DNA from: a virus
DNA length: 14,963 bases
Virus genome (UHGV): UHGV-0220714
Reading direction: 5' to 3' (one strand)
Shown here: piece by piece, positions 5,153 to 5,602 of the stretch
Layout: each line of letters begins with the position of its first letter
How positions within the stretch are numbered: the first letter of the stretch is position 1
Notes under the pieces: model-generated
What the model was told of the DNA's origin: nothing
The model's input: the letters and a program-made list of their open reading frames with translations, nothing else
Database searches by the model: none
Translations under genes and position numbers: made by a program

Positions 5153-5602
5153 TTACTTAACCAATGATGCTGCATATTCGATAAGGTAAAGCTTTGGAGC
5201 CAGCCAAATTTTTAACCAAGTCATATTGGTTACTGCACCAATAATAAAAATCCCCCACAGAGCCAAAACTCCAACCAATGGCATGATAAGAAAATTAATA
5301 TCACCTTTGCTATCCCAAACCATTGTCGGCCTGTATTTGGGATTTCCTTTCTCCCATGAACATCCTTCATCACCGATTTTACCTGTCTCAACTCTTTGGC
5401 TCTGCTTCTTCATAAACCAGAAAACCAGTGGGATTGTTAGAATGGCAATTAATGTTTTAATCAGACTGTCAACCATATTCCATAGCAGCAACTGATGAAC
5501 AACATCAGGAATCTGTGCCTGGCTAAATGAAACAGCCGCATCTATTCCATTGCTGGCTTTTTGCAGTAGTTCTACGAGAATCTTGTTTGCTTGTTCTTCC
5601 AT
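5153..5602 (-). CDS. Membrane protein, 149 aa, in the SieB (superinfection exclusion) position downstream of N
   Basis: ORF track; two hydrophobic segments (LIKTLIAILTIPLVFWFM, INFLIMPLVGVLALWGIFIIGAV); GAGGTGA SD overlaps N stop; own terminator downstream. SieB assignment is positional inference. Confidence 0.5.
   Translation of the reverse strand: MEEQANKILVELLQKASNGIDAAVSFSQAQIPDVVHQLLLWNMVDSLIKTLIAILTIPLVFWFMKKQSQRVETGKIGDEGCSWEKGNPKYRPTMVWDSKGDINFLIMPLVGVLALWGIFIIGAVTNMTWLKIWLAPKLYLIEYAASLVK

Follow-up and report, generated by a model that had tools for sequence, protein, structure and literature searches.

The window analyzed here is a stretch of 14,963 nucleotides of the UHGV virus genome UHGV-0220714. 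It covers the immunity region and the early-left region of a lambdoid phage or prophage, and between its N antiterminator gene and cIII it carries an open reading frame of 149 codons, which we call ORF149. We found that ORF149 is a real gene that stands on its own as an accessory element of the early-left (pL) operon of lambdoid phages and that its product is a two-helix membrane protein. A preliminary description of this DNA had placed the gene in the position that lambda and P22 use for sieB. However, ORF149 is not SieB, and the window does not contain any sieB. That the gene belongs to the family PHROG 3054 and not to SieB can be regarded as practically certain. The central part of the locus is organized as follows (in the order of leftward transcription):

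6146-6174, minus strand: pL-like promoter TTGATA-17-CATTAT (consensus scan, 9 of 12 matches)
6066-6080, minus strand: boxB of nutL, GCGCTGACAAAGCGC, identical to a sequence within the annotated P22 nutL
5611-5946, minus strand: N antiterminator gene of the P22 gp24 type, 111 amino acids (Pfam N_peptide, 6.7e-26)
5606-5612, minus strand: Shine-Dalgarno sequence GAGGTGA, overlapping the last two bases of the N stop codon
5153-5602, minus strand: ORF149, 149 amino acids, two-helix membrane protein, member of PHROG 3054
5121-5148, minus strand: first intrinsic-terminator hairpin with U-tract, directly after ORF149
4779-4913, minus strand: cIII, 44 amino acids (Pfam cIII, 2e-30)

The N protein shares 67% of its residues with P22 gp24 across the first 75 amino acids, and the recombination genes come after cIII. 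The pL-like promoter sits downstream of the rexB terminator and upstream of nutL and N, and this position suggests that it functions as pL. ORF149 starts with an ATG at 5602-5600 and ends with a TAA at 5155-5153 (minus strand). The stop codon of N (TGA) is located at 5613-5611, so that exactly 8 nt separate it from the ATG of ORF149. This short distance and the Shine-Dalgarno sequence overlapping the stop codon, both pointed out in the preliminary description, can be read directly from the sequence. The adjacency of the two genes would allow translational coupling of ORF149 to N, which the preliminary description had assumed.

When we compared ORF149 with the PHROG profiles, residues 1-149 aligned with positions 1-137 of the 137 positions of phrog_3054 (1.4e-62), and all of the diverse relatives that were tested (40/40) matched the same PHROG, which is annotated as "unknown function". 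Two protein searches yielded 518 and 1418 homologues, and every named sequence among them was labelled hypothetical, "TMhelix containing protein" or "Gene 34 protein". When 1.84 billion representatives of 50% identity clusters were searched with a profile, the search recovered 3946 sequences at E ≤ 1e-3 and 1891 at E ≤ 1e-10, and the best 150 cluster representatives were all single-domain proteins of about 86-184 amino acids. The DNA of ORF149 was present in 244 of 5426 complete Escherichia coli genomes, including those of O157:H7 strains, and the label given by the Prokaryotic Genome Annotation Pipeline (PGAP) was hypothetical protein. In Pfam, nothing matched ORF149 at E ≤ 0.01 and only a sub-threshold match to EIID-AGA (E 0.079) was seen, while NCBIfam and PADLOC gave 0 matches each. 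The models for RexB, T4 Imm, holins and known defence proteins in Pfam, PADLOC and NCBIfam did not match either. A Pfam scan of 129 relatives returned scattered weak matches only, which were due to their transmembrane (TM) composition. No PDB sequence was matched by the profile at E ≤ 10, and a fold search did not provide a lead. In the literature on phrog_3054, on Sf6 gene 34/gp34 and on membrane proteins of early-left operons we found no study of this family.

Named members of PHROG 3054 include gene 34 of Shigella phage Sf6, ECRS218_0047 of CUS-3, gp47 of phage Oslo, a 'TM helix-containing protein' of HF4s and gp220 of phi92. They share with ORF149 full-length homology, the same two-TM hairpin and the same N-terminal and C-terminal motifs, and in the lambdoid members the position in the early-left operon is also the same. 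ORF149 differs from these proteins in nothing material and is an ordinary member of its family. Lambda and P22 do not carry a homologue. Outside the lambdoid phages, homologues were found among the early or middle genes of the N4-like Schitoviridae FSL SP-058 and Vibrio 1.238.B as well as of other Vibrio and Pseudomonas phages, and in FSL SP-058 the gene lies near the RNA polymerase subunit genes. The phi92-like Justusliebigvirus Paula also carries a homologue, and the Paula record cites phi92 gp220 as BLAST match. N4-like and phi92-like phages are regarded as virulent. One family member appears to be fragmented in the database: the 121-amino acid protein of HK633 (locus 3001-3363) is split in the record into two shorter coding sequences (HK633_045 and HK633_044) across 2691-3366, and the record probably mis-calls it.

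SieB of lambda and P22 resembles the ORF149 product in its small size, its association with the membrane and the location of its gene between N and cIII, and its role is interference with other phages. The Pfam SieB model (PF14163) did not match ORF149 even at E ≤ 10, and the same model detected lambda SieB (1e-29), Oslo gp48 (5.9e-27) and the SPLA1b protein (1e-25), which served as positive controls. BLASTP of ORF149 against lambda SieB found nothing, and hhalign of the family profile against the lambda and P22 SieB proteins gave a probability of 0.2%. The SieB identity considered in the preliminary description must therefore be abandoned, and these tests at the sequence and the profile level justify its caveat that the call was positional only. 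The idea of a common slot was correct insofar as the region between N and cIII holds sieB in lambda and P22, but it is not the same slot. In lambda, sieB (34482-35036) is on the plus strand and N on the minus strand, and in P22 sieB is located on the strand opposite to gene 24 with an annotated promoter, an RNA start and an internal esc start. ORF149, unlike sieB, is on the same strand as N. The most direct argument is that the two genes occur together. In the Salmonella phage Oslo, N is followed by an antisense sieB (Pfam 5.9e-27) and then by a homologue on the N strand that is 89% identical to ORF149, and phage SPLA1b carries N, sieB (1e-25) and a 121-amino acid family member. This coexistence indicates that sieB and ORF149 homologues occupy different slots and are neighbours rather than replacements of each other.

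Comparison with the lambda genome shows which place ORF149 occupies. The window sequence 4976-5141 is 95.8% identical to lambda 33923-34087, which is the DNA right after the ral stop codon, and lambda 33483-33522, directly ahead of cIII, has its counterpart in window 4937-4975. Since these two lambda blocks adjoin in the window, ea10 (lambda 33536-33904) is absent here. On the other side of the gene, window 5591-5627 matches the start of lambda orf28, with its Shine-Dalgarno sequence, ATG and first codons. Judged from this flanking homology, ORF149 takes the place where lambda has orf28-ral. The two segments are bounded by the same sequences, and the 166 bp past the first terminator stem of ORF149 are 95.8% identical to the DNA after the ral stop codon, hairpins included, but the encoded proteins are unrelated. 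Two simpler relationships were considered and rejected. Lambda orf28 is not a decayed remnant of ORF149, as only the Shine-Dalgarno sequence, the ATG and about five codons match, and ORF149 is not an alternative to ral, as ral lies directly upstream of homologues in CUS-3 and in many IMG/VR loci.

The junction ATTTGAGGTGATATATGGAAGAA, which comprises the Shine-Dalgarno sequence, the ATG and the first codons at window 5591-5627, recurs at lambda 34346-34381 before orf28. The same Shine-Dalgarno-ATG junction precedes homologues of ORF149 irrespective of whether the upstream gene is N (15 loci with the 8-nt gap) or ral (CUS-3 and about 14-23 IMG/VR loci with a gap of ~58 nt). The terminator behind the gene was also retained in most of 74 close IMG/VR loci. 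Both the junction and this terminator go along with the gene, which thus behaves like a portable unit with the junction as its apparent boundary.

Behind ORF149, the spacer up to cIII contains three further hairpins in addition to the first terminator already listed:

5060-5098, minus strand: strong 14-bp hairpin without U-tract (-21.9 kcal/mol, z = -7.0)
4976-5003, minus strand: second terminator-like hairpin (lambda counterpart 33952-33931)
4936-4965, minus strand: third terminator-like hairpin, just upstream of cIII (lambda counterpart 33512-33493)

The first hairpin consists of a stem at 5148-5131 (AGGCCG/CGGCCT) that is followed by UUUAUUUUU. With -9.7 kcal/mol (z = -2.9), it is a good candidate for an intrinsic terminator, and its lambda counterpart is located at 34095-34080, at the end of ral. 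In the second hairpin, a stem at 5003-4986 is followed by CUUUUUAUAU (-10.7 kcal/mol). Both hairpins had been reported in the preliminary description, as had a 9-bp inverted repeat (5093-5085/5074-5066), and all three elements were recovered; the repeat is the core of the 14-bp stem. The third hairpin (stem 4965-4946) is an addition to that account, and the length of the spacer, given there as 238 bp, was measured as 239 nt up to the ATG of cIII (4913). Altogether, six terminator-like sites were counted in the region, compared with 1.7 ± 1.2 in shuffled sequences. The 14-bp hairpin is part of the block that shares 95.8% identity with lambda (at about lambda 34006-34044, between ral and ea10). 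An Rfam search returned no match for this hairpin and none for the window. The three lambda counterparts are presumably part of a leftward terminator cluster described between ral and bet; a literature search on lambda tL1/tL2 yielded no usable source for a match to the named lambda terminators.

To describe the transcription units around ORF149, the features upstream of pL have to be included:

8237-8944, minus strand: cI-like repressor gene
7835-8176, minus strand: DUF3024 gene, 113 amino acids (Pfam 1.7e-31)
6853-7683, minus strand: rexA (PADLOC 1.6e-116)
6385-6822, minus strand: rexB (PADLOC 3.1e-54; the RexB Pfam model also matches)
6383-6362, minus strand: terminator directly 3' of rexB, 97.6% identical to lambda at the same place

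The lysogenic cI-rexAB transcript meets this last terminator. Between the pL-like promoter and position 5148, a terminator scan of the minus strand found no terminator, and a promoter scan of N did not detect a promoter-like site even at a relaxed threshold of 8/12, although these promoter scans considered the sigma-70 consensus only and weak or activator-dependent promoters would escape them. With no signal separating ORF149 from pL and N and with a terminator right behind it, the gene should be co-transcribed with N from pL. The immediate-early pL message would then be about 1 kb long, would carry N and ORF149 and would end at the first hairpin, which would terminate the N-independent pL transcript. 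Under these conditions the protein would be made as soon as infection or induction has occurred, at a time when antitermination by N is not yet required, and the gene would be silent in the repressed prophage. We consider such early lytic expression quite probable. Expression restricted to the early lytic phase also fits the distribution of the family, whose members belong to the early or middle gene sets of N4-like and phi92-like phages.

These data also bear on the possibility that ORF149 is a SieB-type or analogous abortive-infection or exclusion protein whose expression in the lysogen would be driven by a promoter within N and which would protect the lysogen against superinfecting phages. 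SieB itself is expressed by the prophage and arrests superinfecting phages midway through their cycle (PMC10883804), whereas ORF149 is predicted to be an early lytic gene. A small membrane protein encoded in the N-cIII interval of a lambdoid prophage would fit such a role, lambda and P22 do have sieB in this region, and further defence genes expressed in the lysogen are present in this prophage (rexA, rexB and the gene matching PDC-S43). However, ORF149 lacks homology to SieB, does not share the strand of sieB, has homologues that coexist with a true sieB in Oslo and SPLA1b, and did not match any PADLOC model. Moreover, no promoter-like site was found in N, and there is no lysogen to be protected by the members found in N4-like and phi92-like phages. 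We therefore rate this explanation as very improbable. Expression in the lysogen, which the preliminary description gives for sieB, is not supported for ORF149 either: its proposed check for a promoter inside N was negative, a terminator follows rexB, and homologues occur in families regarded as virulent.

Next, the protein itself was analyzed. Kyte-Doolittle hydropathy confirmed the two strongly hydrophobic segments that had been noticed before; they extend over residues ~43-64 and ~104-126, with 19-residue means of up to 2.0 and 2.5, respectively. Two TM helices were predicted in 136 of 148 family representatives. For the conservation profile, 145 sequences were aligned (ORF149 and 144 representatives that are less than 50% identical to one another), and on this basis the gene can be divided into three parts:

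5477-5602, minus strand: codons 1-42, conserved acidic N-terminal helix (alignments, conservation profile, AlphaFold2)
5225-5476, minus strand: codons 43-126, hypervariable hairpin (TM1 43-64, loop 65-103, TM2 104-126)
5156-5224, minus strand: codons 127-149, conserved C-terminal helix W-L-K/Q-I-W-x-A-P-K-x-Y-L-I-E-Y-A-A-S-L-x-K

On average, the frequency of the top residue was 0.60 for residues 1-42, dropped to 0.31 in TM1, 0.21 in the loop and 0.20 in TM2, and rose to 0.75 for residues 127-149. Near-invariant positions are F26, P32, V34, Q37-L38-L39 and W41 in the N-terminal part and I132, A135-P136-K137, L140, E142-Y143 and L147 in the C-terminal part. ORF149 carries both family motifs, F..Q.QIPDV..QLL.W in its N-terminal and WLxIWxAPKxYLIEYAASLxK in its C-terminal part, and these motifs flank the two TM helices. 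The length of the loop varies across the family between 10 and 69 residues. In Vibrio and Pseudomonas phages the protein sequence of the ends is retained, which indicates purifying selection on them. At the DNA level, ORF149 and the CUS-3 gene (3001-3423) show a mosaic joint within the gene: codons 1-42 are 94% identical, the middle part 41% and the last 23 codons 78%. In this comparison the middle part is saturated, with 23% identity at third codon positions. In lambdoid phages, recombination thus also makes use of the conserved ends as joints.

A first structural model (AlphaFold2, 42 sequences) reached a pLDDT (predicted local distance difference test) of 62.8 and was too weak to be used. 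With 129 sequences the pLDDT was 76.8, and helices were predicted for residues 2-68, 106-125 and 128-148. From the overall shape of this model, the coordinates of which were not inspected, we infer that the C-terminal helix may lie alongside the N-terminal segment just outside the membrane. With moderate confidence, the model depicts a helical hairpin in which the two TM helices would act as inner-membrane anchor and the conserved residues 1-42 and 127-149 would be placed on the same side, as antiparallel helices adjacent to the membrane. Such an architecture, a conserved module tethered to the membrane, appears likely to us. As to the side of the membrane, the 10-residue flanks of TM1 contain on average 0.57 lysine or arginine residues before and 2.71 after the helix, and the N-terminal tail is acidic (2.35 lysine or arginine vs 6.04 aspartate or glutamate residues). 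These flank charges and the acidic tail favour an orientation with the N-terminus out, the loop in and the C-terminus out, and a periplasmic location of the conserved termini is thus somewhat favoured over a cytoplasmic one.

The small size, the two TM helices and the charged termini of the protein would also be compatible with a function in lysis timing, as a class II-like holin or antiholin. However, holins have their functional core in the TM helices, and these are the part that is conserved least in ORF149. In addition, the gene is located in the early-left operon, far from any lysis cassette, its expression is expected together with N, and no holin family was matched in Pfam or PHROGs. 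A role of this kind is therefore hardly to be expected.

The pattern of conservation suggests a different view of the tethered protein. The conserved N- and C-terminal helical module would probably be its working part, and the TM hairpin would merely serve as a tether. The same termini are conserved across hosts and across phage morphotypes and tail types, and this suggests a conserved host target. During lytic growth, the module would probably act on some conserved component of the host, either in the envelope or close to the membrane. Of the roles described for small early envelope proteins of phages, protection against secondary infection is the commonest, and the T4 proteins Imm and Sp are small envelope proteins that are made early in lytic infection and confer superinfection immunity. 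The most likely role of ORF149 would accordingly be a conditioning of the envelope against secondary infection that follows the logic of T4 Imm and Sp, unlike the lysogenic logic of SieB. The relation to Imm and Sp is an analogy only, as there is no homology and no Pfam family matched at E ≤ 0.01. We rank such a lytic-cycle exclusion or envelope-conditioning function first among the possible functions but propose it tentatively, since its own probability is rather low.

One alternative assumes that ORF149 is an early membrane-tethered inhibitor of membrane-associated effectors of the host or of resident prophages (Abi channels, TM effectors), comparable to ral in the same accessory region. The gene sits at the place of orf28-ral in lambda, and in many loci its homologues are directly downstream of ral, an anti-restriction gene. 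Its expression is predicted for the very start of the programme, where anti-defence genes are expected, it is an accessory mosaic gene (244/5426 E. coli genomes), and its family is found in temperate and in virulent-type phages. However, the protein is not similar to any known anti-defence protein, and its conserved part is the same in Vibrio, Pseudomonas and enterobacterial phages, which would demand a very widely conserved defence target. We regard counter-defence as unlikely and rank it next after the exclusion function.

The cross-host conservation would fit a protein that takes over or organizes host functions. Here, the module would have a host housekeeping factor as its binding partner at the membrane (in division or cell-wall synthesis, or FtsH/HflKC) or would anchor phage replication or recombination complexes, as does p16.7, an early membrane protein that anchors phi29 replication complexes to the membrane. 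ORF149 shares its operon with kil, cIII and recombination genes, and the homologue of Vibrio phage 1.194.O is located inside a replication/recombination module, beside DUF2800 genes. When we clustered the neighbours of 77 loci in 31 subfamilies, no neighbour family was common to more than five subfamilies, and the recurrent neighbours were ordinary pL-operon genes (repressor, N, the kil/cIII and recombination regions). Since no neighbour family is widely shared, the protein appears to act alone, and the lack of a conserved partner gene argues against an organizing role. The same holds for the absence of a recognizable DNA-binding or enzyme domain and for the fact that the gene is dispensable in many related phages, lambda and P22 being without it. 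The probability of this explanation is, in our view, similarly small as that of counter-defence.

Returning to ORF149 as an early lytic, membrane-tethered exclusion or envelope-conditioning protein, several observations weigh against this interpretation. Promoter scans confined to the sigma-70 consensus would miss weak or activator-dependent promoters, and the argument from the family's distribution assumes that the N4-like and phi92-like groups are virulent. For the topology, whole-segment counts of lysine and arginine are nearly balanced, and some short-loop variants such as that of SPLA1b point in the opposite direction. As for function, Pfam, NCBIfam, PADLOC and the PDB sequences and folds give no lead, and the conservation of the termini across hosts weakens the case for a target in one phage type and hence for a classical block of injection. 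Taken together, we give the explanation as a whole a little better than an even chance.

A broader proposal can be formulated for the family. PHROG 3054 may represent a pan-phage class of immediate-early membrane-tethered effectors, which would be shared by temperate lambdoid phages and by virulent N4-like, phi92-like and Vibrio phages. Their juxtamembrane two-helix module, built from the N- and C-terminal parts, would act on a conserved envelope or membrane-proximal target, the hypervariable hairpin would be a mere interchangeable anchor, and the activity would lie outside the described exclusion, Abi, holin and anti-defence families. This proposal is conceivable, but we would put its chances somewhat below even.

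For annotation, the data correct a plausible error, as a gene between N and cIII is not thereby sieB. They also draw attention to PHROG 3054, a family of about 3,900 clusters at 50% identity without a name or a Pfam model, and place it at the earliest point of the phage programme. Its pattern of conserved termini around a hypervariable membrane hairpin is unusual. The family is already catalogued and ORF149 adds an ordinary member to it, so that the surprise at this locus is modest and the family is of greater interest than the single gene. Since members are present in tractable phages (Sf6, CUS-3, relatives of HK633, N4-like phages), their function is directly testable.

Finally, some observations were made in the region upstream of ORF149. 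The DUF3024 protein matched the PADLOC candidate defence gene PDC-S43 (2.2e-41). Its gene is placed between cI and rexA, where lambda does not have a gene; in lambda, cI-rexA-rexB form an operon expressed in the lysogen, and the DUF3024 gene is inserted within the corresponding stretch. The Rex pair of the window is divergent, with 41% (RexA) and 46% (RexB) identity to the lambda proteins, yet both are clear members of their families. Beside the pL region, a sigma-70-like site (TTGTGA-18-TATAAT, 10/12 matches) is present on the plus strand at 6195-6224, and it is aimed at rexB in antisense direction.

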